From: Escherichia phage vB_EcoP_ShWW44
Sequence record: PQ900156.1
Length of the DNA stretch: 64,000 bases
Strand: one strand, 5' to 3'
This document shows, piece after piece, positions 3,492 to 64,000 of the stretch; the first letter of the stretch is position 1; the number at the start of each line of letters is the position of its first letter. Both the position numbers and the translations under genes were made by a program. Below the pieces are notes generated by a model. The model saw nothing but the letters and a program-made list of their open reading frames with translations. It was not told the origin of the DNA and did no database searches.

Positions 3492-4667
3492 ATGAACCAA
3501 TTTCCTCAGCACACACTTAGTGATGAACAACTCATGCGTGAGTATGACCGTATTCAGGCTCAGGCGTTTCTCGGAGGCAGTGCTGCGTTCTTTGGTTCAT
3601 TACTGTGTAGTCTTAAATTCTCATGGAAACGCGAGGGTTGCCCCACTGCACGTACTGATGGGATAGAACTCCATTTCAATCCAGACTTCTTTATCTGGAT
3701 GTGTCCAGATGCAAGAGAAACAGTGCTTATGCATGAATTATGGCATGTGGCATATCTACATGACATTCGTCGTGGAAGACGTGACCCAGAAGTCTGGAAC
3801 CAGGCATGTGACCACTTCATTAACCTTCAGTTAGAAGAAGATGGCTACAAGTTCACTGGCATTGATAAAGGTATTTGCAAAGACCCTCAATATAAAGGAT
3901 GGGTCGAAGAAGACATCTACGATGACCTGATGAAGAACCCTCAGAAAAGGCAAAAGCCGTCGGGGGGTGCTGGAGCAGGTCTTGCTGGCGACATGAAATC
4001 CCCCACTTCGGGGCAGTCCCAGGGTGCTGTCGTCAACAACGTAGTACGTGCAATGCAGAGCCAGAAGATGGCTGGTGGACAGATGCCCGGTAAGGGTGCT
4101 GGTCGTATGGAAGAGGTTATTACCCAATTCCTTAAACCAGTAGTTCCCTGGCAGGAAGTTCTGATGAACTTCTTTACCGACATTGATGACACCCATTATA
4201 CGTGGGCCAGACCTAATCGTCGTTACACTGACATCTATCTACCTTCCCTGGAAGATGATGAAGGACGTTTACGTCACTTAGCATACTTTGAGGATGTATC
4301 TGGTTCTATTAGTGGTGCTGACTCTCTGCGTTTTAACTCAGAGGTTGCCTACGTTAAGAGCCAGTTCAATCCTAAGAAGATGTCCTTAATTACCTTCGAC
4401 GATATTATCCAAGAAGAGATGGACATCACTGAAGAAGATACTTTCGAAGAAATTAAGATTACAGGTCGTGGTGGTACAAACCTTGAACCAGTACGTGAAT
4501 GGATTATTAAGAATAAGCCAACCGCTGCAATCATATTCTCCGATATGTATGTTCGCCCAATGGAAGAATTGCCATTTGATATCCCTATCATCTGGTGTGT
4601 TCTAAATAATCCTAATGCTACCGTACCTTTTGGGGAGGTAGTTCATATCCCTAAAGGAATGAAATAA
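3492..4667 (+). CDS. VWA-domain protein with N-terminal HExxH metallopeptidase-like domain (partner of the AAA ATPase)
   Basis: HELWHVAYLH motif; start set to first ATG after the ATPase stop (track ORF begins at 3408 inside the ATPase gene). Confidence 0.6.
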   Translation: MNQFPQHTLSDEQLMREYDRIQAQAFLGGSAAFFGSLLCSLKFSWKREGCPTARTDGIELHFNPDFFIWMCPDARETVLMHELWHVAYLHDIRRGRRDPEVWNQACDHFINLQLEEDGYKFTGIDKGICKDPQYKGWVEEDIYDDLMKNPQKRQKPSGGAGAGLAGDMKSPTSGQSQGAVVNNVVRAMQSQKMAGGQMPGKGAGRMEEVITQFLKPVVPWQEVLMNFFTDIDDTHYTWARPNRRYTDIYLPSLEDDEGRLRHLAYFEDVSGSISGADSLRFNSEVAYVKSQFNPKKMSLITFDDIIQEEMDITEEDTFEEIKITGRGGTNLEPVREWIIKNKPTAAIIFSDMYVRPMEELPFDIPIIWCVLNNPNATVPFGEVVHIPKGMK

Positions 4668-5173
4668 TGGTTGTTAATGGTAATTCCCTGTATCGTTCAT
4701 CTCAACTGCTGGATGTCCCAGACCGTAAGGTATCTAAACACGGTGTAAGCTATGGATTGGGGGAAGCTGGTTATGATATTCGCATCAAACAAGATATTAC
4801 CTTCTATCGCTTATTTGGGTTGATTCCAATGGTGAAAGTCGTTGATGGAAATCAAGTATCACGCCATCTCGGTAAGTTCACATTGGCTTCAGCAATTGAG
4901 AAGTTCAACATGTCCCCATCCTGTGTAGCCATCGTTCACGATAAGTCTACTTGGGCAAGACGTGCATTATCTGTATTCAATACCGTAATAGAACCAGGAT
5001 GGAAAGGGTATTTGACTCTTGAACTGGTCTATCATGGTCGTAAGAAATTGCATATCCCGGCTGGTTCTGGGATAGCTCAAGTATTATTTCATCTGGTTCA
5101 GGAACCTGCTAATTACAATGGCAAGTACATGAACCAGGAAAACCAACCAGTAGCTGCAAGAAGCAGTAAATAA
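4667..5173 (+). CDS. dcd: dCTP deaminase / dUTPase-fold protein
   Basis: KSTWARRALSVFNTVIEPGWKGYLTLEL resembles the dCTP deaminase core; TAATG overlap with upstream gene. Confidence 0.6.
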   Translation: MVVNGNSLYRSSQLLDVPDRKVSKHGVSYGLGEAGYDIRIKQDITFYRLFGLIPMVKVVDGNQVSRHLGKFTLASAIEKFNMSPSCVAIVHDKSTWARRALSVFNTVIEPGWKGYLTLELVYHGRKKLHIPAGSGIAQVLFHLVQEPANYNGKYMNQENQPVAARSSK

Positions 5174-5182
5174 GGAAAACTC

Positions 5183-5392
5183 ATGTCAGTATTTCAAGTA
5201 ACTAATGCAACCTCAAATGTACGTGTAACCATTAATGCTGCAAACGTGATTGCAGTGGAACTGATTCCACTGTCTGATTGTGCACGTATCACATTCGTAA
5301 ATGATGGTGCTATGGAAACCAAAGAAACCTATCGTTCTGTGCGTAATTATCTGAAGAAAGCTCTTGCTCCAGCAAGTAAAGATGCTGAGTAA
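5183..5392 (+). CDS. hypothetical protein (69 aa)
   Basis: ORF only. Confidence 0.4.
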   Translation: MSVFQVTNATSNVRVTINAANVIAVELIPLSDCARITFVNDGAMETKETYRSVRNYLKKALAPASKDAE

Positions 5393-5406
5393 GTAGCTGC
5401 CTAGAT

Positions 5407-5430
5407 AGCCCAACTATGTTGGGCTATTTG
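5407..5430 (+). terminator. probable intrinsic terminator
   Basis: AGCCCAAC/GTTGGGCT hairpin followed by ATTTG. Confidence 0.45.
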
Positions 5431-5465
5431 CGAAGAAACTAACTCAACCCCACATAGGAACCATC

Positions 5466-5717
5466 ATGGAATCTTTAGCAGCAATCCTTGTACTGTTGTT
5501 TGTATTAGCCGTATACCTTATCCCTACTATCATTGCTTTTGCACGAGGTCATGCCTCTAAGTGGGGTATTGGTGTGCTTAATATCGTATTAGGCTGGTCA
5601 CTGGTATTTTGGGTAGTAGCACTTATTTGGGCACTGTCTAATAAAGGAACTACAATCGTTAACGTTGGCAGTGGTAACCAGTACAACGTGTCTCAAACGA
5701 GCAGCAAAGCAGAGTAA
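5466..5717 (+). CDS. superinfection-immunity (Imm)-like two-TM membrane protein
   Basis: 83 aa, two TM helices; LIPTIIAFARGH...LNIVLGWSLVFWVVALIWAL resembles the Imm family pattern. Confidence 0.6.
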   Translation: MESLAAILVLLFVLAVYLIPTIIAFARGHASKWGIGVLNIVLGWSLVFWVVALIWALSNKGTTIVNVGSGNQYNVSQTSSKAE

Positions 5718-5790
5718 CTAATCTAAGCATCATTAATAGGGTGCTTGTGGAAGTTACTTCCAGCTCATTGCTTATCCATCTCCTAACCCA

Positions 5791-5816
5791 AGCCCACCTA
5801 ACCCGTGGGCTTTTTT
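5791..5816 (+). terminator. intrinsic terminator
   Basis: AGCCCAC-ctaaccc-GTGGGCT followed by TTTTTT. Confidence 0.65.
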
Positions 5817-5862
5817 AATTACAGGTACTTCTTATGACAAACAGACGAATGGTAAGTCTATC

Positions 5863-6211
5863 TTGTATGGGCTGGACTTAAGTAAGCTAGAACAAACAGC
5901 AATGCTTACTTTAGGTAAAACTATCCATGACCAAGTGGAGAATGAAAATGTATTAGATCTTTACACAACAATGCAGGTTCTTGTTCAAAAAGATGGACTA
6001 CTAGCAGACCTTTTCCTTCATACATTCCCCCAGAACCGCATCTGAAATCTAAGGTAGACCGTATCATAGATAAGTTCTGGCTTAGCCCGTGTTATGACGA
6101 AATGCATCTTTACTTGGCTCAAATACAAAAGAATCCTTATACCAAAGATGTATTTAAGGGTAAGAGTACTACTCACCACTACCCCTGGTATAGAAGAGGT
6201 AGCAAATACTA
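5863..6211 (+). pseudogene. possibly frameshifted gene: ORF 5863..6045 continues in another frame to 6211
   Basis: Frame of 5863..6045 stops at 6043-6045; an ATG-less open frame runs 5946..6211 and ends overlapping the next start; homopolymer CCCCC at about 6026-6030 lies in the overlap. Confidence 0.3.
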
Positions 6212-6655
6212 ATGCGTATCCCATTCCTGAGAAAAAGGGAACGAAATCCTGTTCTTTACAATAAAGGCATAGAGGATGAGTATGAACTCAATCGTAAAGC
6301 TCGTTCCTACACAACAGAATTATTCATAGGGACTAGAAATCCTGATAGATTATTGGACTTTGTTTTTGAACAAGTCTTTATCATATACAGATTAGCTATG
6401 ACTGCTGGTTCACAAGAAGTGGGTGATAAGGCAAGACATGCTCTCTGTATGCTCCGTAAAGAGTATGAAGCCCTCATGTATGAAGACTTGTACTCCTTTA
6501 AAGAAGAAACCGCTGTAGCGTGTTCTGTGGCTCTTACTGAAGGTGTAGCAGTATTACAAGAACTACCTCGTAGTGAGTTTAAGCTGGTATACGCTCAGGT
6601 TAAGAGAATCACAGAGACGAGAAGTGGTATCACTAACTATCTAAGGTCATTCTAA
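6212..6655 (+). CDS. hypothetical protein (147 aa)
   Basis: ORF; stop overlaps thyX-like start. Confidence 0.55.
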   Translation: MRIPFLRKRERNPVLYNKGIEDEYELNRKARSYTTELFIGTRNPDRLLDFVFEQVFIIYRLAMTAGSQEVGDKARHALCMLRKEYEALMYEDLYSFKEETAVACSVALTEGVAVLQELPRSEFKLVYAQVKRITETRSGITNYLRSF

Positions 6656-7599
6656 TGATTAAGGCATCAGTTATTGCAGATTCCGTTCATCCAGAAACAG
6701 GAACTCGTATCACAACCTTTGAATTGGTTTATCCCCGATTCATTCACAGTGAATTTATGACTCACCGTGTATTCAACCGTAATGCTTCAAGTAGCCGTGC
6801 TATTCCTACTTCTAAATTAATTGAACAGGTTCGTAATGAACCAGTGATGCCAAGTCACTGGGGCAAGAACCAGAAAGGTATGCAAGCAGAAGAAGAACTC
6901 ACTCCTATGGAGATTGAGGATGCTAAGTTTATCTGGGATAACGCTGCATCTGCTGCTGCTGTGTACGCTGAACAGCTACGTCGTGGACAAGTACATAAGC
7001 AAATTGTTAACCGTATTCTGGAACCCTTCACACATATCCGTGTAGTAGTAACTTCAACTAGCTGGGCTAATTTCTATGGACTGCGTGACCACAAAGATGC
7101 ACAACCAGAGATTCGTGAACTGGCTCAAGCAATGCGTAAGGCACATGAAGAAAGCACACCAAGAGCATTACCGTATGGGCATTGGCATTTGCCATATATT
7201 GCTCATATTGACCGTGTTGGGGCTTACAATTTCTGCAAACGTAATCGAGTTACACGCGATGAACCAAGTGATGCAGAAGTATATGGCTTACTTCTCAAAG
7301 TAAGTGCTGCACGCTGTGCTCGTGCTTCTTATAACAACTTTGAAGGACGACCTTCTACTATCGAAGAAGACCTTGGCTTATTCGCTAAGTTAGTAGAAAA
7401 CCAACCTATTCATGCTTCACCAACGGAACATCAGGCTACGCCTATGAACCTTGGTGAAAAATATGTGAATAACATGAACCCAGTTACATGGGAACAAGGT
7501 GTTACATCCATGGATAAAGAAGGGAATCTGTACTCAGGTAACCTGCTCCACTTTATCCAATTCCGTAAATTAATTCCTGGTGAGACTATTACTGAATGA
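6655..7599 (+). CDS. thyX: flavin-dependent thymidylate synthase (ThyX)-like
   Basis: FMTHRVFNRNASSSRAIP fits the ThyX (R)HR-x7-S...R signature. Confidence 0.5.
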   Translation: MIKASVIADSVHPETGTRITTFELVYPRFIHSEFMTHRVFNRNASSSRAIPTSKLIEQVRNEPVMPSHWGKNQKGMQAEEELTPMEIEDAKFIWDNAASAAAVYAEQLRRGQVHKQIVNRILEPFTHIRVVVTSTSWANFYGLRDHKDAQPEIRELAQAMRKAHEESTPRALPYGHWHLPYIAHIDRVGAYNFCKRNRVTRDEPSDAEVYGLLLKVSAARCARASYNNFEGRPSTIEEDLGLFAKLVENQPIHASPTEHQATPMNLGEKYVNNMNPVTWEQGVTSMDKEGNLYSGNLLHFIQFRKLIPGETITE

Positions 7600-7834
7600 A
7601 AAACTAGCTCTATACGCAATGCTAATTAGTACCCTACTAACACTGACCTACGCATACAAAGTTGCCTTTGTCGTAGAAACAGATATGCAGTTCATTCGAG
7701 CTAGTATTCTGTTCTTTGTAAGTGAAATTGGTTTGTGGTGTATCTACTACTTTGCTCGTGACTACGAAGCAATTCGTGAGCAGGAAGAAGTAAAAAGACA
7801 AATGATACGATTTGTAGAACAAAATCGTAAGTAA
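7580..7834 (+). CDS. small membrane protein (84 aa, two TM)
   Basis: Hydrophobic segments LALYAMLISTLLTLTYAY and ILFFVSEIGLWCIYYF. Confidence 0.45.
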   Translation: MRLLLNEKLALYAMLISTLLTLTYAYKVAFVVETDMQFIRASILFFVSEIGLWCIYYFARDYEAIREQEEVKRQMIRFVEQNRK

Positions 7835-11197: not shown

Positions 11198-13246
11198 ATG
11201 AAAATCGAACTGATTTCTATCATCGCACTGGCAGTTGACAGTCGTAACCTTACATTGTGGAAGCCCGATGGCTCCACGATTGTATATCCTCAGAGCGACC
11301 CACGGGTTGCTCGCATTGTATCTGAGGCTCAAACTAAAGGTCTGGGAACTACCAAAGACCAAATAGAAGTAAACATCGCACCAGAAGGAAACCTGCATAC
11401 TGAATATCTGGAAGCAGAGAAGAACACTAACGGATTCGTCCGTTTCTTCAAGGTAGCTAAAGCTAAACTCAAAGAGTTCTTCCAGGATGGTACAGGTGTT
11501 CAACCTGCACACGTATTATCTGATATTAAGCTGGGTAATCCTACTAAGACACTGGTGTCTAAAGCTATGGATACCTTCCTGGCTGTACAGGCTAATGAAC
11601 CAGAAGTAACTGTAACGAATGGTTGTTATGACAAACGTGACAACCTAATGTGGGTTACTGGCTGGGACAAAGACCATAACCATCTTGCACTGGTTCGTTT
11701 TATTAACGACGTACTGGGTTGGGGTTATGACCATACTAATCGCATCCTTGCACGGGAATGGCCTATTGGAATCCGTGCAGTATCCGATGATGAAATGAGT
11801 GAGTTTGCTAAGCAAGCCAAGCACATCAAAGGAGTGCATATTGTATTTACCAGTCGTGATGTAACGCCATTTCCATATGTAGAAGTAGCTAAAACTACGA
11901 ACCAGGATAAGCTGGCTGCTGCTTCTGAGAAGTTAGCTGCATTGGGGGCTATTAGCACCGATGATGCTAACTTCCACACCGAAGTGAAAGAAGACGAAGT
12001 GGTTGTTGCTGTTACCAACAATGGGGTTATACCTGGAGTTGAAAACCTGCATCGTCACTTGCGTCAGTCTGCCAAGCTGAAAGACTACAAGGGCTTTACT
12101 AAGTTCCTTGAGCGTCTGGCTCCGGTTATTAAAGACCGTCTGCACTCAGTAGAAGACCTGATGAAGTTCATGGAAACTGCTGAATTACCTATTGCCGATG
12201 ATGGTTCAATCCTGTTCCTTAAACGCCTTAAGTCTAGTGGTATAGAAAATGGTAAACGTGTATTCGTTGACTGTCACTCAGGTAATATTCGTCAGTGGGT
12301 AGGCTGTAAAGTGCAGGTACGTGAAGACCTGGTAGACCCTGACCGCCGTCAGGATTGTTCTAACGGTCTGCACGTAGCATCCATGAGCTATATACGTGGC
12401 TTCGGTGGTAACGTAACTATCCTTGGTAAAGTAGCACCGGAAGATGTATTTGCTGTTCCTGAGTACAGCACTAATAAGATGCGTGTATCTGCGTATCACA
12501 TTATTGCTGAACTACCGGAAGAGGAACGTAATAACGTTAACAATGGTATCTACCTGTCTAAGACAGAAGTAGGTAAGAAGCTACTTAATGATGCCATCGT
12601 TGGGAACCATAGCTCACCTACCACACTTATTATGGTTGGTGGTCATTATGGTACTAACCTCAAATACACTAATCTAACGTCCGGCTCTGTAGAACAATTC
12701 CGTACAGTTGCTAGTAAGGAAGCACTAAACATGGAAGAGTCACTGAATGAAGCTGTAGCTGCTGAACCAGTGAAAGCTACCGACCTTAAACCTGTTATTA
12801 AGAAGGCTCCTACTGTGAAAGAACAAATCCAGGAACTGGTCAAAGAGTTCCTTAATGCAACAACACCAGAAGATAAGTTAGCTGCTGCTGACCTTCTGGT
12901 AGAACTGCGTTCCAAAGCCAGAAAGCCTTGGGGTGCATTCGATGTAGGTAGTGATGTAGTAGCTAAGATTGCTGATGTACGTACTACCTATACAGCTAAG
13001 CCTATTGGTAAACCTAAAGCTGTTAAGCAGGATAAGACAGTTAAACCCACTAAATCTAAGCCTGCTATTAATGGTACTAATGCCAATATCATCAGAGGTT
13101 ATCTAGCAGATAGTGGTATGTCCGATTATCAGAAAGCCCACTCCATTCATGACCTGAAACGTGCAGCTAAGAAGTCATACGCTGCTATGGGTCTTACTGA
13201 AGAAGAGTGCAAAGCCATTGATAAACTGAAGCACCATCTTAAGTAA
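11198..13246 (+). CDS. rIIB: rIIB-like protein (by synteny only)
   Basis: 682-aa ORF immediately downstream of rIIA-like gene; no diagnostic motif read. Confidence 0.4.
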   Translation: MKIELISIIALAVDSRNLTLWKPDGSTIVYPQSDPRVARIVSEAQTKGLGTTKDQIEVNIAPEGNLHTEYLEAEKNTNGFVRFFKVAKAKLKEFFQDGTGVQPAHVLSDIKLGNPTKTLVSKAMDTFLAVQANEPEVTVTNGCYDKRDNLMWVTGWDKDHNHLALVRFINDVLGWGYDHTNRILAREWPIGIRAVSDDEMSEFAKQAKHIKGVHIVFTSRDVTPFPYVEVAKTTNQDKLAAASEKLAALGAISTDDANFHTEVKEDEVVVAVTNNGVIPGVENLHRHLRQSAKLKDYKGFTKFLERLAPVIKDRLHSVEDLMKFMETAELPIADDGSILFLKRLKSSGIENGKRVFVDCHSGNIRQWVGCKVQVREDLVDPDRRQDCSNGLHVASMSYIRGFGGNVTILGKVAPEDVFAVPEYSTNKMRVSAYHIIAELPEEERNNVNNGIYLSKTEVGKKLLNDAIVGNHSSPTTLIMVGGHYGTNLKYTNLTSGSVEQFRTVASKEALNMEESLNEAVAAEPVKATDLKPVIKKAPTVKEQIQELVKEFLNATTPEDKLAAADLLVELRSKARKPWGAFDVGSDVVAKIADVRTTYTAKPIGKPKAVKQDKTVKPTKSKPAINGTNANIIRGYLADSGMSDYQKAHSIHDLKRAAKKSYAAMGLTEEECKAIDKLKHHLK

Positions 13247-13260
13247 TAGCCTGTTCAAAT

Positions 13261-13292
13261 AGCCTCACTTATAATAAAGTGAGGCTATCTTT
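13261..13292 (+). terminator. intrinsic terminator
   Basis: 10-bp stem AGCCTCACTT/AAGTGAGGCT, loop ataata, then ATCTTT. Confidence 0.65.
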
Positions 13293-13308
13293 GAAGAGGA
13301 AATAAGCT

Positions 13309-13704
13309 ATGTCTAAAGTATTCAGAAGTAATCGCAAAGCAACTGATGAAGACATCATTCGTATGAATGCTGTTGGTCTGTCCCTCGCAACTATCGCTAA
13401 GACGTTGGGGGTTCACCCCACTACGGTTACTTTGCGATTGCGTTCTCTAAACATTGAACCAGCCGATACACGTCGGACGTTCATGGAAAACGTATTACGA
13501 CCTTTACCAACCCATGTGGCTGATTGGCTATCAGAACAAGTTGGTCCTGCTTATGAGATTCGTTCATATGTAAGAGACTTGATTCTGGAGGCATATAACA
13601 ATCGTCACCTTAACCAAGAGAGTGAGCATGACAAGTTCATCCGTTTGTACGCTGGCAAATACGGAAGCCTGGTTCCGGAAAGCAGTACCAAATCCGACGA
13701 GTAA
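13309..13704 (+). CDS. HTH DNA-binding protein
   Basis: Helix-turn-helix-like segment LSLATIAKTLGVHPTTVTLRL. Confidence 0.45.
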   Translation: MSKVFRSNRKATDEDIIRMNAVGLSLATIAKTLGVHPTTVTLRLRSLNIEPADTRRTFMENVLRPLPTHVADWLSEQVGPAYEIRSYVRDLILEAYNNRHLNQESEHDKFIRLYAGKYGSLVPESSTKSDE

Positions 13705-14083
13705 GAACATTAGTACCCAGATGGGTTGCCATCTGGAAGAAGTAGAAGAAATGCTTCAGACCATTTATCCAAATGGTAGTTACGATGCAGAATTACTGCA
13801 ACGTGCACAAGATGCCATTACAAATCTGGCAAACCATATGAAACGTAATGACGATGCTTATCGCATTGACGCTAGTACCAGTCTGCTGGATTCACTGGCA
13901 GATCAGATTGTTACAGCAACTGGCGTCGGTACTTTCCTTGGGATGAATGTCCCTGGAGCATTGGCTGAAGTCAATCGCTCAAACTATTCTAAGTTTGAAG
14001 ATGGGGAACCTGTCTTCAATGAGAATAAGAAAGTTATGAAAGGGAAAGACTACACTCCCCCGGATTTAACCCCTTACATCTAA
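13622..14083 (+). CDS. MazG-like all-alpha nucleotide pyrophosphohydrolase (start uncertain; may begin at ATG 13721)
   Basis: HLEEVEEM followed by LLDSLAD fits an EExxE...ExxD arrangement; track ORF overlaps the upstream gene by about 80 nt. Confidence 0.4.
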   Translation: MSMTSSSVCTLANTEAWFRKAVPNPTSKNISTQMGCHLEEVEEMLQTIYPNGSYDAELLQRAQDAITNLANHMKRNDDAYRIDASTSLLDSLADQIVTATGVGTFLGMNVPGALAEVNRSNYSKFEDGEPVFNENKKVMKGKDYTPPDLTPYI

Positions 14084-14115: not shown

Positions 14116-15426
14116 ATGTTTTCCAAACCTACCAAAGCCCCACTGAACAAGGGGCAAAAAGCGGTTGCGAAGGAGTTCTTCGACTTCCTGCTCAACCCTA
14201 ATGCTACCGAATTCAATATTAGTGGCCCTGGGGGAACTGGCAAGACATTCCTGATGTCGCACCTCATTGATGACACTATGCCTGCATATATGGAAACTTG
14301 CTCCCTTATGGGAACCAAGCCCCTGTATAACGAAGTTGTTATGACTGCGACCACGAACAAGGCTGCTGAAGTTCTGGCTCAGGCTACTGGACGTCCAACA
14401 TCTACCTATCATTCCTTTCAGGGACTGATTGTTAAGAATGACTTTAAGACTGGTGAGGCTAACGTCGTACCATCTAAATCATTCAATATTAAGAAGAACA
14501 AAATCATCTTCGTAGATGAAGCATCCATGATTGACCGTCAGTTACTTAAGTATGCTCGTGAAGGTACTCACCAGTGTAAGCTGGTATTCGTAGGAGATGC
14601 TTCTCAGCTTCTGCCTGTTAAAGAGAATAAGTCTCCGGTATATGCAGGTAATATCCCAACACACTATCTGACTGAACAGATGCGTACCGATGCACCGGAA
14701 CTCAAAGCATTGCACCAACAATTGCGTGATACGGTGGAAGGTAAGACGGGCTTCCTGCCTATTAAGTGTATTCCAGGCATTATTGACTGGGTACAAGAGG
14801 AAGAGATGGAGAAATTGGTTCTCAGTCACTTCACTCAACCTACTAATAGCCGTATTGTTGCTTATACGAATGACCAGGTTATTAATTACAATAACTACAT
14901 TCGTGAGGCCAACGGATACGTAGGTGAGTACTCCATTGGTGAACAGCTAGTCTCTAACTCTGCTGTTCGTTTAGGTGTGGATAATCGTCTGTCTATCGAA
15001 CAGGATGTAAAACTCATCGACCAGGATAGTAGTACTCGCATGATTAAGGTTACAGGTGACCTGGAACTGGAAGTTCGTGATAGTACTCTGGACCTTGGTT
15101 ATGGTGGTATTGTAAGTGAAGTTCCTGTTCCTACTGACCCAGACTACTTCAACCGTTTGGTTAAGTGGCTTGGTAAAGAGAAGAACTGGGAACCTTACTT
15201 CCGTCTTAAAGAAACCATTCCAGACCTGCGTGCTACTCATGCATGTACTGTCCATAAATCACAAGGCTCTACTTACGACACAATCTTTATTGATGCGAAT
15301 GACCTCTCAAGCTGTCGCCAACCTGATATGGTTGCTCGCCTGCTTTACGTCGGTGTGTCACGTGCCCGTAAGCGAGTAGTGTTCTATGGCAATCTTGCCA
15401 GTAAGTATGGTGGTCTAACTTTCTAA
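14116..15426 (+). CDS. SF1B DNA helicase (Dda/RecD-like)
   Basis: Walker A GPGGTGKT, Walker B IIFVDEASM, C-terminal VHKSQGSTYDTIFID. Confidence 0.8.
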   Translation: MFSKPTKAPLNKGQKAVAKEFFDFLLNPNATEFNISGPGGTGKTFLMSHLIDDTMPAYMETCSLMGTKPLYNEVVMTATTNKAAEVLAQATGRPTSTYHSFQGLIVKNDFKTGEANVVPSKSFNIKKNKIIFVDEASMIDRQLLKYAREGTHQCKLVFVGDASQLLPVKENKSPVYAGNIPTHYLTEQMRTDAPELKALHQQLRDTVEGKTGFLPIKCIPGIIDWVQEEEMEKLVLSHFTQPTNSRIVAYTNDQVINYNNYIREANGYVGEYSIGEQLVSNSAVRLGVDNRLSIEQDVKLIDQDSSTRMIKVTGDLELEVRDSTLDLGYGGIVSEVPVPTDPDYFNRLVKWLGKEKNWEPYFRLKETIPDLRATHACTVHKSQGSTYDTIFIDANDLSSCRQPDMVARLLYVGVSRARKRVVFYGNLASKYGGLTF

Positions 15427-20305: not shown

Positions 20306-22455
20306 GTATTGACCTTACCGGAGTAGTGCATCATCCGGCGATTGAAGAAATCGTAGATGTGCTCTGCAATAAAACCCAGAATAATGACCGGGGATTTTTC
20401 CGTGTCGAAGTAGCCTACTTCTTGGCTAAAATGGCATCCTGCATGGGTGCAACCATCGTAACTAAAGATCGTGGTGACCTGCCGGTAAACATCTACGCTA
20501 TAGCGTTGGCTACATCTGGTTTCGGTAAAGGTCACTCAGTAAATATCATTGAAGACGGGTTCATGACTGGCTTCCGTAAACGCTTTATGGAAGACACCAT
20601 GCCCGTCATTGCAAATGATCGTCTATGGAAGATTGCTAACGAACGCTCTGCACGGCAGGGTACTGACCAGCAGGAAGAGTTTGATAAAGTTGAGGCAGAG
20701 TATAAACGTGCAGGGGCATATCCGTTTACGTTTGACTCAGGTACTCCACCAGCAGTTAAACAACTACGCCATAAACTATTAATGGCTGGATGTGGTTCAA
20801 TCAATCTTCAGATTGATGAAATTGGTTCGAACCTGTTGGCTAACATGGATGTACTAACCTTGTTCCTGGAGTTATATGACCAGGGAAAAGTAAAACAGAA
20901 GCTAACCAAGAATACTGCTGAAAGCGTTCGTGGTGAAGAATTGGATGGCAAAACTCCAACTAACCTGCTGCTGTTTGGTACACCAAGTAAGCTACTGGAT
21001 GGTGGTCAGACTGAAGACCAGTTCTATGGCTTTCTTGATATAGGGTATGCACGTCGCTGTCTGTTTGCCACTGGTCACTTAGACAAAAGAGCACATGCAA
21101 CACTAACCCCGGAAGAAATCTACCGTAACTTGATTAAACAAGATAACGTACAGACCCTTGGTAAGTGGGCTAACCATTTCCATAGTCTGGCTGATCCAAA
21201 CCTGTTTGGTTTTAAGATGGTTGTGGAAGATGCAGTGGGTATTGCTCTGATTGCTTACAAAATTGATTGTGAGAAACAAGCAGAAGCTATGGCTGACCAC
21301 GAAGAAATTCGTAAAGCTGAAATTTCCCACCGTTATTTCAAAGCACTTAAACTGGCAGGAGCACTGGCGTTTGTTGACCAGAGTTCATTCATTGAGATGA
21401 CTCACCTTAAACAAGCAATTCTGCTTGTAGAAGAATCTGGAGCAGCATTCCAGACAATCCTCAATCGTGAGAAGGCTTATGTGAAGCTGGCTAAATACAT
21501 TGCTTCTGTAGGTAAAGAAGTAACTCATGCTGACTTGGTGGAGTCATTGCCTTTCTATAAGAGCGGCAATGCAGCTCGTAATGAGATGATGACTCTTGCT
21601 ACAGCATGGGGATATAAACAGCACATCATCATTAAGAAAACCTTCAATGAAGGTATTGAATTCTTTCGTGGGGAAACTCTGAAAGAGACTGACATCAATG
21701 AGATGATAGTGGCATATAGTGATAGCTTTGCTTATGACTACATTGGTGAACGTGTACCGTTCGACCAGTTGCATGTATTAACCCAAGCTCCCGGTATGCA
21801 TTGGGTAAACCATCACATGAAGAATGGGCATCGTTCTGAAGAGAACGTTATTCCAGGATTTAACATGATTGTTATTGACTGTGATGGAGGAGTACCACTG
21901 CATACGTGCCATGAACTGATGAAGGAATATAAGTTCATGACCTATACCACTAAGCGTCATTCTGATGAAGAGAACCGATTCCGACTGATTATTCCAATGA
22001 ACTATGAGTTACATCTCGATACTGAGGAATACAAAGAGTTCATGAATAACGTTATGTCTTGGCTACCGTTTGAAACGGATGAATCTGCTAACCAACGGGC
22101 CAAGAAGTGGATGTCCTGTGAGACTGGTTCCTATCATTACAATCTTGAAGCAAATCTGCTGGATGTGCGTGACTTTATTCCTCGTACTAGTAAGAACGAG
22201 CAGTTCCAGAACCAGATGAAGGAAGTACAGTCGTTGGATAATCTGGAGCGTTGGTTCGCTAGTCGTATTGCTACCGGTAATCGTAATAATCAAATGATTA
22301 AGTACGCACTGGCATTGGTTGACAGTGGTTGGGACTTTGCTCAAGTACAGCAAGCCGTCCACTCATTCAATAAGAAACTGGCTAATCCATTACCAGATGA
22401 TGAATTGAATGCAACCGTAATGGTCACCGTGGCTAAACGCTTCGCTGGCAAGTAA
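20302..22455 (+). CDS. DNA primase (prim-pol-like core with PriCT-like C-terminus)
   Basis: NMIVIDCDGG DxD motif; C-terminal helical region resembling PriCT; start set to ATG 20302 after upstream stop. Confidence 0.5.
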   Translation: MSIDLTGVVHHPAIEEIVDVLCNKTQNNDRGFFRVEVAYFLAKMASCMGATIVTKDRGDLPVNIYAIALATSGFGKGHSVNIIEDGFMTGFRKRFMEDTMPVIANDRLWKIANERSARQGTDQQEEFDKVEAEYKRAGAYPFTFDSGTPPAVKQLRHKLLMAGCGSINLQIDEIGSNLLANMDVLTLFLELYDQGKVKQKLTKNTAESVRGEELDGKTPTNLLLFGTPSKLLDGGQTEDQFYGFLDIGYARRCLFATGHLDKRAHATLTPEEIYRNLIKQDNVQTLGKWANHFHSLADPNLFGFKMVVEDAVGIALIAYKIDCEKQAEAMADHEEIRKAEISHRYFKALKLAGALAFVDQSSFIEMTHLKQAILLVEESGAAFQTILNREKAYVKLAKYIASVGKEVTHADLVESLPFYKSGNAARNEMMTLATAWGYKQHIIIKKTFNEGIEFFRGETLKETDINEMIVAYSDSFAYDYIGERVPFDQLHVLTQAPGMHWVNHHMKNGHRSEENVIPGFNMIVIDCDGGVPLHTCHELMKEYKFMTYTTKRHSDEENRFRLIIPMNYELHLDTEEYKEFMNNVMSWLPFETDESANQRAKKWMSCETGSYHYNLEANLLDVRDFIPRTSKNEQFQNQMKEVQSLDNLERWFASRIATGNRNNQMIKYALALVDSGWDFAQVQQAVHSFNKKLANPLPDDELNATVMVTVAKRFAGK

Positions 22456-25508: not shown

Positions 25509-25907
25509 TATCGTGAAGGGTTCTGTTAGAATCCTTTGAGATAGGAACTCCTATCATAACCTTTCTTAACTTAATCCTTGCCGTATGGCACTGACGCTAG
25601 GGTTTATGCCCATCCGTCAGGTAGACTATTTTAAGAATGGGTTATCACAGAAAATGTAAAGCAACATTCGGGTTAATCAATGGCCTCTCTCTATAGGGGC
25701 CATTTCTGAATCTTAGGCTATATCCCAAAGGTTAGTATCTTTGGGATAAGGCTTCAGATCCCTTATAAACTAACGCTCATGTTGAGCATAACACTAACCC
25801 CTACTGGCGGGTAATTCGATACGCTAGTCCTACAGCATCGAATTGTTAGGTCTTACATGCAACATAGGGTATAAAGGGAGGATTCGTCCCCTCCCTCCTA
25901 TTATAAT

Positions 25908-25977
25908 GGTCGGGGTAGCACGTAGGCATGTGCAGAAGGTCGCTACTTCTCTCGCTGGTTCGAATCCAGCCCCTGAC
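25908..25977 (+). tRNA. probable tRNA (isotype unresolved; anticodon loop read as GTCGCTA)
   Basis: 7-bp acceptor stem GTCGGGG/CCCTGAC, D-stem GCAC/GTGC with GG in loop, perfect stem AGAAG/CTTCT, T-arm GCTGG-TTCGAAT-CCAGC; TATAAT element just upstream; variable loop only 3 nt. Confidence 0.45.
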
Positions 25978-26433
25978 CTACTGACATCCTATCAATGAGT
26001 ACATTAGGCTAACGTGCGGAGGTTTACACTGTAGCCGGTGTAGGTGGAGAAGACGGCAGGGTAGCTACCTGTGCTTAGTGTACTCTTTGATAGTTTTCGT
26101 AAGCGATTATGCGGTTTTTTAGAAATGAACCAATAACATAAATGCAAACGATGATGTTGTTCTGATGGCGGCGTAATAGCCTGTAAGTCAGCAAGGTCTT
26201 CCTATTCCTTGTAAATAAATTCGGCGCAGTGGCCCGCTGTAATTAATAATGGGCACACAACAGGTAAGAGCATTGGGTAATGTCAGCCTTGGTTCGAAGT
26301 CGAAAGACATGCGGTAATACCCAGCCAAAGTTCCAGTGCTCTTTCCGTTGTGGAAATGCAAGCACAACAAGTCCAGACGATATCTGAGTGACTTTAAAAA
26401 CAGATGGAGCCAGGTGGAATCCCTGGCAATCTA

Positions 26434-31600: not shown

Positions 31601-34600
31601 GTTGTTAGCACCCATGATGGTATCGAACTTCTGCTGTGCATAGTAACGGTCAGCAGGGTTAGTACTATCTGGGTCAGCCATGAACGATTCAACAGTTAGG
31701 TTCTTAGTAACATGTGTGTAGTATTCCTGTGCACGAGCCATAGCAGCAGGGTTAATAGCAGCCTCAGTAGCCAGTGCAGCAACGATGTTAGTGAAGAGAC
31801 GCTGTTCCTGCATATTCATGGTGAAGCCATGGGCCTGAACATCACGGGTTACTTTGGTTGCATTTACTACTGCATCAGAGAACTTACCTTTACGAATTAC
31901 TTGCTGTACTGGTTCTGAACCAATGTAGTCAGTAATCAGCTTATCAAAGGTCTTACCTAACTCTTCCAGACGAGTATTGTCACCATATGCTTTGTTATGG
32001 AACAGGGTAGTGTCTTTGGCTACAGCAGCAGTAGGAGCTTGTCCACGCATTACTACAGCAGAGTTAAACAGTAGGCCAGAGAACATATCATCTGCATTAG
32101 CCGGAGCTTTCTTACGTCCAAATACCAGACGCTTGATTGCTTCATATACAGCCTGAACCATAGCTTTAAGTGCAGTGGTTTTCTTCTGCTTACCAATCAG
32201 TTCACGGTTGGTTAAACCCCAGGCCATGTACTCATTTAGTGCAGCAGCTTTAGCCATTGCTGGTTCAATAAAGCCATTGGACAGGTGACCGTTAATGGTA
32301 TTGAGTGCATCAGCATATGCTTCACGTACTGCCGGAGATTCATCCTTAACATCCAGAGCACGAAACTGGTTCATCAGGTCTTCAATATTCTGAACTGCTT
32401 CATTAGGAGTACCTTCATAATGAGCCAGTACAGATTCAAAAGTAGAGGCATGTACCAACTCATGAACCAGAGTCTCTAAGGAAGGGGTAACTAAATAGAT
32501 GGTCTTATCTTCAAAGTTAGTCCAGCCGTATGCATTACCAGCTTCAGCAGCTTCAATATCTTCCGGTGCTGGGCGAGTAATATTCTTCTCAATAGCATAG
32601 GCATCCAATTGAGCAGGTGTACCATAAACAACCTTATAGTCTTTAGCAGCGAGAGATTTCTGTATTTCTTTCAGTACTGCTTGCTGTTCAGGAGACATCT
32701 CTTTAGCCAGCTTAGAGATAGCAGTATTAGACAGCAGACGTACACCAGACTTCAGTACACGACCAACCTGTTCCATTGCTGGTACTTCTTTCACTGGTTC
32801 TGCTTTAGTAGCACGTACTGCATCACGACGCTTGTTTAATTCAGCATCAAACAGTTCGTTTAGCTTAGCTACTTGCTGGTCTACAGTAAGACCTTCCAGA
32901 GAGATTTTACCGTTGTTCACATAAGGAGCACCAACAGCAGCCATCTGGTCAACGGTGACTTGTACCTGGTCCATTACCTTGTGACGAATATCTACACCCA
33001 AAGCAATGTTACGCAGATTGCGTTCAATTAATGCAATACCAGAATCTTTAATCATAGAAATTTTATAATCTCTATCACCATCTACTCTGGTAATCTGAGC
33101 ACGCTGGTCATACTCCAGAGCAGATTTAGCGATAGCCTGTTTGGTTTCATCAGACAGTTTGCTGAAATCTACGTTCTTATGAAACTTAGCAAAGGAGTCA
33201 TAAACATTCTTGATAGGATTACCCTGCCAGGAAGTATATACAGCCTCATTAGCTTTACGACTTGCGTCAGTGATGTCATTGATACCAATGTTCATACCAT
33301 CAAAGATTTTCAGGGTATTCTTCGGAGCACCTTTCATAGTAGAAAGGGTCTGCATCATCATGCCATCACCAGTACCGATGGTCATAAACGGAATACCTGC
33401 AACACCTGCCTGTGAAGGAGCATAGATGCTCATTGGCACACGCATACGGTCATCTAAGTTGGTAGCCAATACTTGGTTAGCAACATCAGTATTCTCGCTA
33501 CCAGCAATGTAGAAAGTCTGGGAACCAGTCTCAATCATTGGAGCCAGTGGAGATAAGTGATTCTGAATTTCATTCAGTTCTTTCTGAGTTAAGAAATCAC
33601 CTTTCTTCCATGTTGGGTCTTTTTCTTTTTCTGCCAGTTTAGCCTGTACTGCCTGTTGGAACATATCCTGCAATACCAGTGATTGAATCTGAGTAGCCTT
33701 CTGCAAATTTTCAGTAGAGTACATCAGACCTTCACCAACAGTATTTCGGATACCATGTCGCATTGGCTCAACGAACAAGTGAAGCATGTTCTCTTGTAAG
33801 TTCTTCAGAGCATTACCGGATACAGTAAACTTCTGAGGGTCTAATTTACCGGTCAGAGCACCTTCTACCTGCTGAATAGACAACTCACCTTTACGCATAA
33901 CTGGAACATTGCCAGTTAGTGCTTCCATAGAAGTAAGGAAAGTATCCAGCATAGCCTGAGCATCGGCCTCAGACGCAGCCTCCTTACCAAACATAGCCAT
34001 AGCCGGGGAAATGCTAGGGTCAGCAGCACGGGCTTGCAGAACGTCACTGAAGCGTTCATAGATGGTATCAGTAATTGCACTAACCATTTTGCCAGCAATA
34101 CCACGAGCACCTGAACCATAAATGGTAATGGTCAGTGGGTTTTTAGCGATACCGCGTTTCAGGTCCAGAGTACCATCTTCCTTAAGATTGAAGTCTTTAA
34201 TGAATAGGTCCATTAACTTCTGGAGATGCTTCATCTGGTTCGTAACAGGAACGTTGTTACGATAAGTATTACGCAATTCATTCAGATGCCTTTGTAGACT
34301 ATTAGTGGATGCTTCATACAGGTCAACGCTGTCCTCATGCGAATGATGCTCGTTCATAGTCTTGCCAGCTTTACCGAAGAACAAGCCACCTTTAGCAGTA
34401 TTCTTAATCCAGTCTGGAGTGAACTTACCACCCGTCATTAATACCATTGCGTTGATTGGTCCGTTGGTTACACCATCAGCTTCAACGTACAGTGGGGTAT
34501 TAAAGTTGGCACGGTCATCACTGTTAAGATAACAGGCATACTCCATCAGAGCCATGAGAGCTACAAATGATTTATCATTACCCAAAGGGGTCTTCAGAAT

Positions 34601-37600
34601 ATCCACAGCATCAGTAGGTAAGTGCCCAGACTTATCAAACTCAACCATCATATCAACGGCAGGTTTCAATTTACCTTCCAGAGCTTTAGTCAGCTCATCC
34701 GACATAACTTCACGGGACATTTTATGAACTTTGATACCCAATGCCTGAGCCAGTCCAAGCTGGAAGTCAGAGAAGTCTTGACTGTTTTCATTACTTAAGT
34801 CGATGGTAGAGAAAGTTGGTAGGATTGCTTCACGTACCAGCTTAGCTGATTGTGGGTTGTTCTTACCAAGCATCTGCATACGACCTACACGGGTCATGTT
34901 GTAGCCGTAGTGAATAGGTGTAGTGCCAATGTCTTCTCTCTGTTCCTTAATCTGATTGATAACACCAAACAATGGAATCTTTGCATGGACTACGGACAGG
35001 TTCTTACCTTCCAGAGATTTAGCAGTATTCACATTCAGCAATTCTGGGGTAAGAGCACCAGCACCCATCAGTTCCAGAATGTTGTCACGACCCATTGCTT
35101 CATAGAAGTTAACCATAGGCATATGTACACGGAACTCTGTAGCCTGTTCTGCCTTAAGGGCAGCTTTCTGTTCCGGGGTATTCTTAACAGCCGGGTTACG
35201 TAACTGAGTTTGAGCCACAGAAGGGATATCATCACCCAGGTACAGTTTCTCTTCTGGTTCTAAAAGGACAGCTTCCTCAATAGCAGTAGGGAATTTGTTA
35301 ATGGCATCGTTATCATCTAACTTCTCAATGGTATACAGACCAACAGTCTTATTAGATTCTGGGTCAATCTCAGACACATCCAGCATAGACTCTTTAACTT
35401 CACCCATCTCAATGAGAGAAGACAGAATCTCTGTAGCCATTGCCATTGGGATACCCTTGGTATAACCCAGAGGTGCATTAGGATTACGATTAAGTCCCCA
35501 GTAAGATTCAATCTTTTGAGCCAATGAGTTAGTAGCTTCAACCAGAGTCTGAGCATTCTCGAAGTCAGCCAGAATACCTTCAGGTAACAGGGATGCTTCT
35601 ACACCAGTAATAGCAGCTACGTCTTTCATGTCTTTAATGGCAGCATTCTGTGTAGCAGTTAATCGCCATTGCAGACCAGCAAGTACAGCAGTCTCTAACA
35701 ACTGGTCATTGAACTTAAAGGTGTCACCATCTTTCTCTACGATGTTAAGTAACTTACCACCTACCCAACGGTTGGCCTCAGTACCTTCTGCAAAACGTTT
35801 ACCAACGTTCTTGTTAGAAAGGAACTTAGCAAGACGGTCAGACAGAGTAGTCTTCAGAGTTTCACCAAAATCAAACAAGTCCTGATAACGCTTAATCACA
35901 TCACTTGTGAGAGCGTTATTTTCTTTTTGAGTAAATGCTTCAAAGCGAGCAGCAGAAGACAGTGCTTTCTTAACATCAGTCAAAGGAGACACAGAACCAA
36001 TGGTACGAGACTTAGGTTCTTCTGGCAGAGAAAATGCTTTAAGGAACTGGTTCGGTGTCTTGTCATTGTTATAGACAGGGAACACTGTTTCCATTTCCGA
36101 TAGAGGTTTACCACCAACAGTATAGTCTGCTTTCAGTTGAGCCAGTGATACTTCTTCTTTCTCAACGTTATTGGTATTAAGCCCAGATGTATCTACACCA
36201 ATCTGAATCAGTGCATTGTTTGCTTCTACGAATGATTGAACAGTATTGAATTGTTCAGCAGTTAGCTTCTGATTATCAAACAATTGCAGAGATACGAACG
36301 GTTGCTCACTACCTTTATAGAAAGTAGAACGTACAGCACCAGTATCCAGAGACATGTCACGATAACCATCATGACCAAATACGTCAGACAGACTGATATG
36401 GTCGCCATTGGAACCAACAACAGTACCATCAGCGAATAGCCATGGACTATCTCTACGGTCACCATACTTATTAAGAGTATCTTGTGAAATAGTATTCTCT
36501 TTCACATAAGAATCTCTTTCAGATTCAGTAGGCTGTTCAACGATATCCTGTTTTTCAGACTGGTTCTCAGGTTCTTTTACAGTCTGTGGTTTAGACTCTT
36601 TAATAGTAGGTTCTGTTTTAACAGCTTCACTAACAGAGGGTTTAGTCTGTACAGTAGGGGTAACTGGTTCCTGTTTCGTAACAGGAGTTTCATCAACCTG
36701 ATTCACTGGTTCATTAGTCTGTTGGGATTGAGCAGCATCAAGATTGCCCTGACGGAACTCTTTAACTACCTGGGCAGCAGGTTTGTCCAGACGTGAATCC
36801 AATGGGGTAACTTTCACATGAGAAACATTAAGCTCCGGGTAAGCCGTAGCAAGTGCGTTAGCAATATCAGCTACGGTTTTGGCCTCCAGTCCTACTTGCT
36901 GGGCAAACTTAACAGACTTGGTATCATACGGATTGACACCGAGGCCAGTACGACTACGTACCCATTCACGCGAGGGAGTAAGAGCCTGATAATGGACAGA
37001 CTTATTCTTATCCGCATTCCCAGAAATCAGATGCTCATTCAACGCTCCGACCTTATTCTGCATGTGCTGGGCGAACTTCATAAAGTCGTCGAGATAAGCG
37101 GAGGCCAAATCGAAGTTACCAGAGTTGTACGCAGAACGAATGCGTTTAGCATGTTGCAACGCAGAGTACTGGCCTTCATTAGAACGAGATTCGTCGGTTT
37201 TAATCTGTTTACTAACAATGTCTTGAGGACGTAAGCCTAGTTCTTCTGCTTTAGCGTCAAATTCTCGTGCTCCTTGCAATAGAGCAGCAGCAGATTGCAG
37301 GGCAGCACGCTGACGATTCCCCAGTGTAATCTTACCTTCACTTGCATGTTTCAGAACCATGTTCACTGAATCTGCATCCAGTACTTCTGGAGACATATCA
37401 GCAGCCATAGCAATGTTGTTTGCCTGGGCTTGGTTAGCTTCTTCGGTAGCTTTCAGTTTACCTGCTTCAGCCTGTTCCTGAATCATGGAATGGATGGCAC
37501 GGAATGCACGGAGTACCTTCGGTGTATTCTGTACATTAGCCATCAGACCAGAGAACTGGTCAACGATATTAGCAGCAGGAGAACCCTGTTCCAGATTAGC

Positions 37601-62751: not shown

Positions 62752-63075
62752 ATGTACCTGTACTCATTAGTTGCACTACGTACTTGTTATTATCCCCATA
62801 CACTAACTGGACAATATTCTGGCAATGGTAAGGTGGAGAGTACTACCATCCTGTATGAGCCAAGTGAAGAAGCAGATGTGTTCATTGGTACTTGCCTGCT
62901 GTTGGGGCAACCTATCAAATTCATTAAGATAGATAGATCCGTAGAAATACCGGAACACACCAGTGTGTACATACTATCTGAGAATGAACCTATGGTAGTT
63001 ACTACCCTTACAGGTAGACTTATTACCCTCTACCCTTCCACCTCATATTTATCTAGCGACGAGTGTGCCCTATGA
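62752..63075 (+). CDS. early protein, hypothetical (107 aa)
   Basis: ORF tightly packed after previous gene. Confidence 0.5.
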   Translation: MYLYSLVALRTCYYPHTLTGQYSGNGKVESTTILYEPSEEADVFIGTCLLLGQPIKFIKIDRSVEIPEHTSVYILSENEPMVVTTLTGRLITLYPSTSYLSSDECAL

Positions 63076-63413
63076 ATAGAGTACTGTACCTTCATCAATA
63101 TACAGATGATGTCTCTGTTTACTCCGAGAATGTCAATAAAGCTATTGATTGGTTACTGCCACAAGACTGTCATATGCTTATGCTATCTGGCGAGTTAGCA
63201 GATAGTACCCGTGGTTCCATCCTTCTACTTAACAGTCTAGCTAAGTTAACCATCCTTAACCCAGGTGAATCCATAGAGATACCTGCAGGTGAATCTGCAT
63301 TTTTGTTCTTTGAACCAAGGATAGAAGAAGGGTTTGTTGGGCTTACTATAGATAGCAGACCTAATAAAGATTTTAAAAGAGTACGTATCATCACCCCAAG
63401 GGTATCTCTATGA
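63063..63413 (+). CDS. early protein, hypothetical (116 aa)
   Basis: ORF overlapping neighbours by a few nt. Confidence 0.5.
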   Translation: MCPMNRVLYLHQYTDDVSVYSENVNKAIDWLLPQDCHMLMLSGELADSTRGSILLLNSLAKLTILNPGESIEIPAGESAFLFFEPRIEEGFVGLTIDSRPNKDFKRVRIITPRVSL

Positions 63414-63739
63414 AACTAAACACATCCCCCTATCCAGTACAGCTAGAAGTAGTATTTGACCAGGATACCTTCATTAAAAAGTACAAGAAACTTAAAGGGT
63501 ATGAGCCAGACTTGGACGATTGTAAGGGGTATACTTCTTACTCTGGAAATCGAGTATTGATCGGTATCTTTAGGGAACCTTTACATACACTCATCCACGA
63601 ACTCAATCATTTCTGTTTATGGGTGTTTGACTACATAGGTATGCCTATAAACTCTGCCAATAGTGAAGCATATTGCTATTACTATGACCATATCTTCTCC
63701 CAGATTCCTTCCTCCTATTTAACTGCTTATAAGGGCTAA
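63410..63739 (+). CDS. small HExxH protein (putative mini zinc-metallopeptidase)
   Basis: LIHELNHFCLW contains HExxH; 109 aa; ATGA overlap with upstream gene. Confidence 0.5.
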   Translation: MKLNTSPYPVQLEVVFDQDTFIKKYKKLKGYEPDLDDCKGYTSYSGNRVLIGIFREPLHTLIHELNHFCLWVFDYIGMPINSANSEAYCYYYDHIFSQIPSSYLTAYKG

Positions 63740-63740
63740 C

Positions 63741-63875
63741 ATGTGGTATGTAACAGTCAAGGGCTTACCTGAACCAGTAATAGTACACAGCCTAGCTTTC
63801 GTAGAAGTTGGTGGACCATTGCTTGTAAACGGTAAGCTGTATGAGGTTTTAGGTATTAAACGCTATGACGAATAA
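63741..63875 (+). CDS. small hypothetical protein (44 aa; below ORF-track cutoff)
   Basis: ATG 2 nt after upstream stop; ends just before hairpin 63876-63893. Confidence 0.3.
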   Translation: MWYVTVKGLPEPVIVHSLAFVEVGGPLLVNGKLYEVLGIKRYDE

Positions 63876-64000
63876 GGGGTAGATAGCTACCCCAACCATC
63901 TTTCATATTAATACCTCAAAGCTATCTGCTTATAGAGATAGTGCCTATAATATTTTTGCATGTCAAAATTGTGATAGCTATGTACAGCCATAGTGGTGTG

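Follow-up and report, generated by a model that had tools for sequence, protein, structure and literature searches.

Does a small gene of Escherichia phage vB_EcoP_ShWW44 really read in several frames, or is it split only in the sequence record? We asked this for the short region upstream of position 6212 in a 64,000-nt stretch of the phage (PQ900156.1), here called the window. An earlier note on this DNA had proposed that a single frameshift divides a gene at this place, and had offered three possible causes: an indel from sequencing or assembly, decay of the gene, or programmed frameshifting. The ORF with which that reading began does exist: the ORF listing gives 5863-6045, with a TTG start, 60 aa and a TGA at 6043-6045. 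A stop at 5943-5945 precedes the second frame, which is indeed open from 5946 and runs to the ATG of the next gene at 6212, as described. Its end had been placed at 6211, one base off the TAA at 6210-6212, and the frame, said to have no ATG start, contains a lone ATG at 6102.

The window belongs to a Gamaleyavirus coliphage (G7C-like, N4-related, Schitoviridae), and across region 5400-6700 ~60 phages of this kind match it at 82-92% identity. As judged by sequence similarity, the locus is the homologue of N4 gp28 (phrog_12812), a protein family without an assigned role; a Pfam search with the joined gp28 product found no family. The locus is also placed as gp28 is: imm and its terminator lie on one side and gp29-thyX on the other, and the stop overlaps the start of gp29. 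In the window the imm-type gene occupies 5466-5717, and the gp29 and thyX homologues lie at 6212-6655 and 6655-7599. Read from the sequence, an intrinsic terminator 3' of imm (5791-5816, plus strand; stem AGCCCAC/GTGGGCT and a T-run) precedes the unit whose first gene is gp28, and an equivalent terminator is annotated in PhAPEC5, PhAPEC7 and SP5M.

As written, gp28 is spread over three pieces of the plus strand. Its true start is the ATG at 5834-5836, which lies in a third frame and is stopped by the TAA at 5879-5881; the first piece, 5834-5848, reads ATG ACA AAC AGA CGA (MTNRR). In relatives, the gp28 ATG stands at a constant offset from the terminator (26 nt after its GGGCTTTTTT in Bp4, PhAPEC5, nithesis and others), and the gp28 N-termini follow the pattern M[TS][NS]R[RQ]NGKSI. 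The second piece, identified by translation at 5850-5991, takes in ORF 5863-6045; past the Asn codon broken at 5848-5849 it encodes GKSILYGLDLSKLEQTAMLTLGKTIHDQVENENVLDLYTTMQVLVQK, and these are the residues of the protein encoded by L044, a de novo contig described below. The third piece, also identified by translation (5994-6212), encodes WTTSRPFPSYIPPEPHLKSKVDRIIDKFWLSPCYDEMHLYLAQIQKNPYTKDVFKGKSTTHHYPWYRRGSKY, again as in the L044 protein, and ends in the TAA at 6210-6212 that lies over the gp29 ATG at 6212. This TAATG junction is kept in nearly all relatives examined. Joined, the three pieces give 126 aa, where a fused product of about 115 aa had been predicted, and the joined translation covers positions 1-127 of 127 of the phrog_12812 profile (E 8.7e-71). 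As the joined product spans the family from end to end, chance juxtaposition of ORFs does not account for the split.

The gene is therefore interrupted twice, at 5848-5849 and at 5992, rather than by the single frameshift first proposed, and its start at 5834 is in a frame that the proposal had not used. Alignment with intact gp28 genes reveals three 1-nt length differences, namely an extra T, a missing A and a missing base. The extra T is non-coding. It makes a TT at 5829-5830 (plus strand), in the spacer that separates the AGGT ribosome-binding site from the start codon, and in alignments almost every relative has just one T here. TT is the length state of phage St11Ph5, retained in the window, and L044 has a single T. 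The natural contig L053 also has TT, in a 5' allele like that of St11Ph5, but carries AAA at the first break and an intact gp28, so the TT state also exists in a de novo contig with an unbroken gene. At the first break, 5848-5849 (plus strand), which follows codon 5, the window has AA where relatives have AAA or AAAA (compare CGAAATGG), and one base is missing. L044 has AAA here and reads CGAAATGG / CAGACGAAATGG; besides the window, only St11Ph5 has the short AA state. The second break, 5992-5993 (plus strand), lies in the context CAAAAAGATGG (5986-5996), and by alignment the window's AAAAAGATGG corresponds to AAAAAGGATGG in the same-haplotype de novo contig, with one G missing. At this site St11Ph5 has AAGAAAAATGG, compared with CAGAAAAAATGG in PD205, PE007 and EC1-UPM. 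Both breaks require a -1 shift. The CCCCC run that had served as a landmark for the overlap of the two frames is present, at 6027-6031 (plus strand), but it is not an indel site and neither break falls there. Several intact relatives and L044 have the run without change (ATTCCCCCAGAACC), and, given this conservation in intact genes, we rejected it as a slip site. Searches of IMG/VR for the broken forms of the first and second sites matched none, and a metagenome search with an 18-mer specific to the broken first site returned 13 matches, all of them chance matches without similarity to the region.

As a check, the earlier note had named a search for one unbroken ORF at this place in related phages. 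We compared 35 relatives, made up of 25 database and IMG/VR loci (24 intact) and 10 ENA/Logan contigs (all intact). An unbroken gp28 ORF of 126-142 aa is present in 34; in the 10 ENA/Logan contigs, of ~70 kb each, gp28 is 126-128 aa. The sole exception is St11Ph5, which is broken at the same two sites and has the extra T. The substitutions tell of a different affinity: the gp28 haplotype of the window is 92.3% identical to that of PE007 and 90.6% to that of Bp4, and 85.7% to that of St11Ph5. A haplotype nearer to intact alleles, but with the indel states of St11Ph5, is the signature of substitution-only calling on a St11Ph5 reference.

This signature extends over the whole window. In a high-scoring segment pair confirmed position by position, window positions 1-64000 are collinear with St11Ph5 (NC_070873.1) 8445-72444 in one ungapped alignment 64,000 nt long; it contains 3331 substitutions, for an identity of 94.8%, and 0 indels. 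Natural pairs look otherwise. Over ~33 kb, St11Ph5 and nithesis differ by 127 gap openings per 2490 mismatches (155 gap openings over 65 kb), St11Ph5 and Mimir124 by 97 per 2916, and nithesis and Mimir124 by 106 per 3080. At these rates, ~110-170 indels would be expected between the window and St11Ph5. The substitutions themselves are biological and not random, with a transition/transversion ratio of 2.4, 74% at third codon positions and 47% equal to the nithesis base. As the ungapped 64-kb alignment shows that the two sequences are not independent, we dropped the shared indels as independent confirmation of the breaks, together with a comparison of selection between the window and St11Ph5.

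The divergence from St11Ph5 is also unevenly distributed. In stretches of St11Ph5 without a nithesis counterpart, the window differs by 0.98%, compared with 5.8% elsewhere. Over the tailspike gene gp63.1 and a portion of the gp66 homologue, a run of 4275 nt at 53105-57379 matches St11Ph5 61549-65823 at 100% identity. This is the host-recognition module, which in St11Ph5 has been reported to be highly divergent from that of G7C (PMC5764931). Either the reference was used to fill a stretch to which no reads mapped, or the module is genuinely common to both phages; a phage truly sharing the St11Ph5 tailspike module would also explain this 4.3-kb identical block. If the run is fill, then the receptor-binding genes in the window are not those of the phage that was sequenced. 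Three more long blocks match St11Ph5 exactly. Those at 13001-13890 and 25884-26393 (St11Ph5 21445-22334 and 34328-34837) lie in regions of high divergence or many indels between St11Ph5 and nithesis, so that identity there is the opposite of what natural divergence would lead one to expect. The third, 63040-64000 (St11Ph5 71484-72444), reaches into a stretch without a nithesis alignment.

A de novo assembly of the same haplotype provided a direct test. Using the exact gp29 protein of the window, we located the Logan de novo contig SRR32240720_132 (L044; 2940 nt). Against window 3841-6768, L044 has 3 mismatches and 8 gap openings, and all 3 mismatches fall in one 3-nt block; there, and at every indel, the window equals St11Ph5. 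Over the same stretch, St11Ph5 and L044 differ by 221 mismatches. L044 thus carries the window's own substitution haplotype over 2.9 kb. Its gp28 is one ORF of 126 aa (MTNRRNGKSILYGLDLSKLEQTAMLTLGKTIHDQVENENVLDLYTTMQVLVQKGWTTSRPFPSYIPPEPHLKSKVDRIIDKFWLSPCYDEMHLYLAQIQKNPYTKDVFKGKSTTHHYPWYRRGSKY), with a single T, AAA and GG (AAAAAGGATGG) at the three sites. The window is obtained exactly from L044 by removing the bases that St11Ph5 lacks and retaining the St11Ph5 base at each position deleted in the reads. Look-ups for further SRR32240720 contigs returned none from that run for the capsid, which is too conserved, and the window's ThyX was not on record.

L044 and the window also differ at other genes of the stretch. 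At window 5648, within imm (5466-5717), L044 has 9 additional bases (CAGTCTCAG) and encodes an Imm of 86 aa, compared with 83 aa in the window, where the indel is suppressed. The gp27 homologue (5183-5392) has a compensating +1/-1 indel pair at 5260/5264 relative to L044. In the dCTP deaminase gene (4667-5173), the 3-nt block is at 5128-5130, TACATG versus TATCAG, and the window equals St11Ph5. The differences at 5260/5264 and 5128-5130 look like local complex variants that were not carried into the consensus, with 1-2 residues changed per protein.

Collectively, these data make it very probable that both gp28 frameshifts are artefacts of a reference-guided consensus in which substitutions alone were applied to St11Ph5. 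In such a procedure, reads of another phage would have been laid on the St11Ph5 genome, with substitutions called and insertions and deletions ignored. Extra read bases would then have been dropped, the A at 5848-5849 and the G at 5992, and bases deleted in the reads would have been kept from the reference, as with the extra T at 5829-5830. We infer that the record was made by such a SNP-only consensus and that SRR32240720 comes from the same isolate. The sequence pattern is that of such a consensus: there are no indels relative to one reference, and the de novo sequence differs only at indels and complex variants, where the consensus equals the reference. In the phage itself, gp28 is almost certainly one ordinary gene of 126 codons. 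Among the causes first offered, the sequencing or assembly indel is thus borne out, by the zero indels relative to St11Ph5 over 64 kb despite 3331 substitutions and by the intact gene in L044.

Genuine decay is very improbable; in it, the phage behind the window, like St11Ph5, would carry two real 1-nt deletions in a gp28 that is dispensable on its host and being lost. In its favour, the de novo assembly of St11Ph5 is broken at both sites too and has GTG for the ATG, and three indels within 165 nt are a pattern expected of a dead gene. Against this, the three pieces in the window contain no further stop, and joined they equal the intact L044 protein and match phrog_12812 over its full length. 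Descent does not predict that indels alone would be shared with St11Ph5 while the gp28 haplotype is nearer to the intact PE007 and Bp4, and 64 kb with zero indels cannot be natural. In a pseudogene, other sequence of the same lineage would be expected to confirm the lesions; here L044, of the same haplotype, has no lesion, the broken patterns are absent from IMG/VR and the gene has no extra defects. The proposal of a decaying gene is thus not supported.

What, then, of the breaks in St11Ph5 itself? Ion Proton chemistry miscounts homopolymers. St11Ph5 was sequenced on the Ion Proton and assembled de novo with Newbler (PMC5764931). At each coding break it is one base short in a run, with A2 for A3 at the first site and apparently A5 for A6 at the second (compared with PD205, PE007 and EC1-UPM). 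A further A6-to-A5 contraction private to St11Ph5, at TGAATGAAAAAACTAGC, shifts the gp30.1 ATG out of frame; it is reproduced in the window at 7596-7603. At this gp30.1 start (TGAATGAAAAACTAGC), both the window and St11Ph5 read ATG AAA AAC TAG; IME11, ECBP1, nithesis, Mimir124 and seven de novo contigs have A6 (ATG AAA AAA CTA over the thyX stop). In the window, the gp30.1 ORF can be called only from a GTG at 7580 or from an internal ATG. The loss of the gp30.1 start is of the same artefact class as the gp28 breaks. An A3/A4 difference of St11Ph5 at 4756 was considered as a platform error and rejected, as Mimir124 has the short state, which makes it a natural polymorphism. The two gp28 breaks of St11Ph5 may come from read errors or reflect a genuine lesion. 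Two of its three isolated coding indels fall in one 380-nt gene, gp28, and such clustering is commoner in a true pseudogene or a poor-read region than among scattered errors, so St11Ph5 might carry a dead gp28. Any such lesion would be a matter of St11Ph5 rather than of the phage behind the window. The RefSeq annotation of St11Ph5 places a 47-aa hypothetical protein at 14346-14489, inside the broken gp28, with nothing annotated over 14490-14655; the 14346-14489 locus is a frameshifted gp28 homologue, through either sequencing error or a pseudogene.

That the breaks are real in the phage, with gp28 either made through two serial -1 shifts or recently inactivated in a St11Ph5-like lineage, we regard as very improbable. 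If they were, this would suggest that certain hosts select against gp28, for instance because its loss is an escape from a defence system that senses it. The first of these readings, in which two programmed -1 ribosomal frameshifts in a row (or slippage during transcription) together yield the 126 aa, is extremely unlikely. Both breaks do call for -1, and the A5 run at the second (CAA AAA G) could let the Lys tRNA re-pair one base back. However, there is no X XXY YYZ heptamer at the first site, between ATG 5834 and TAA 5881, and the second offers only single-tRNA slippage on AAA. Predicted downstream RNA structure is weak at the first site (z = -1.77) and at the second none is stable (z = +0.61). 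Two inefficient shifts in series would leave almost no product. The two-frame arrangement is not conserved, gp28 being in a single frame in 34/35 relatives, and L044 needs no shift at all, which leaves the idea of a programmed frameshift without support. It is likewise scarcely credible that the locus holds two small genes, one starting at TTG 5863 (60 aa) and the other at ATG 6102 (36 aa): both ORFs are mechanically present and the annotators of St11Ph5 called a 47-aa ORF here, but ATG 6102 is not conserved (St11Ph5 has ACG), 0 relatives have two genes, and gene callers on the de novo contigs give one gene of 126-128 aa.

The substitution-only consensus on St11Ph5 has consequences beyond this gene. 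The split gp28 is not a real feature, and the locus is an ordinary small phage gene. As the window carries the indel states of St11Ph5, other indel-based features may be the same artefact, and all indel-dependent features of the 64-kb window are suspect: frameshifts, truncated or extended ORFs, lost starts, and homopolymer or repeat lengths. In the St11Ph5 RefSeq record itself, gp28 and gp30.1 are probably mis-sequenced or mis-annotated.

The locus can be set beside several known systems. In dnaX-type -1 frameshifting (A AAA AAG), the resemblance of the second site lies in its A-run and the -1 direction; the window differs in having no proper heptamer, stimulatory structure or conservation, and in needing a second shift. 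The closest intact counterparts, Bp4 EpBp4_0061, PhAPEC5 LD33_gp29 and nithesis CDS0055, share the gene order (imm, terminator, gp28, gp29, thyX) and the TAATG junction, but are single ORFs of 126-129 aa annotated as N4 gp28-like, whereas the window copy lies in three frames. St11Ph5 (NC_070873.1 / MG208881) has at 14,270-14,660 the same three length states, TT, AA and an A/G run one base short; it differs from the window by substitutions at 14% of gp28 and 5.2% overall, and GTG replaces the gp28 ATG. The known class that the window resembles is that of reference-guided consensus artefacts: like the window, these have no indels against the reference, carry SNPs that look natural, and retain the reference in unmappable regions and, as here, at a 3-nt variant. 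In both, frameshifts vanish in a de novo assembly, although for the window we infer the procedure from the sequence that it left behind.
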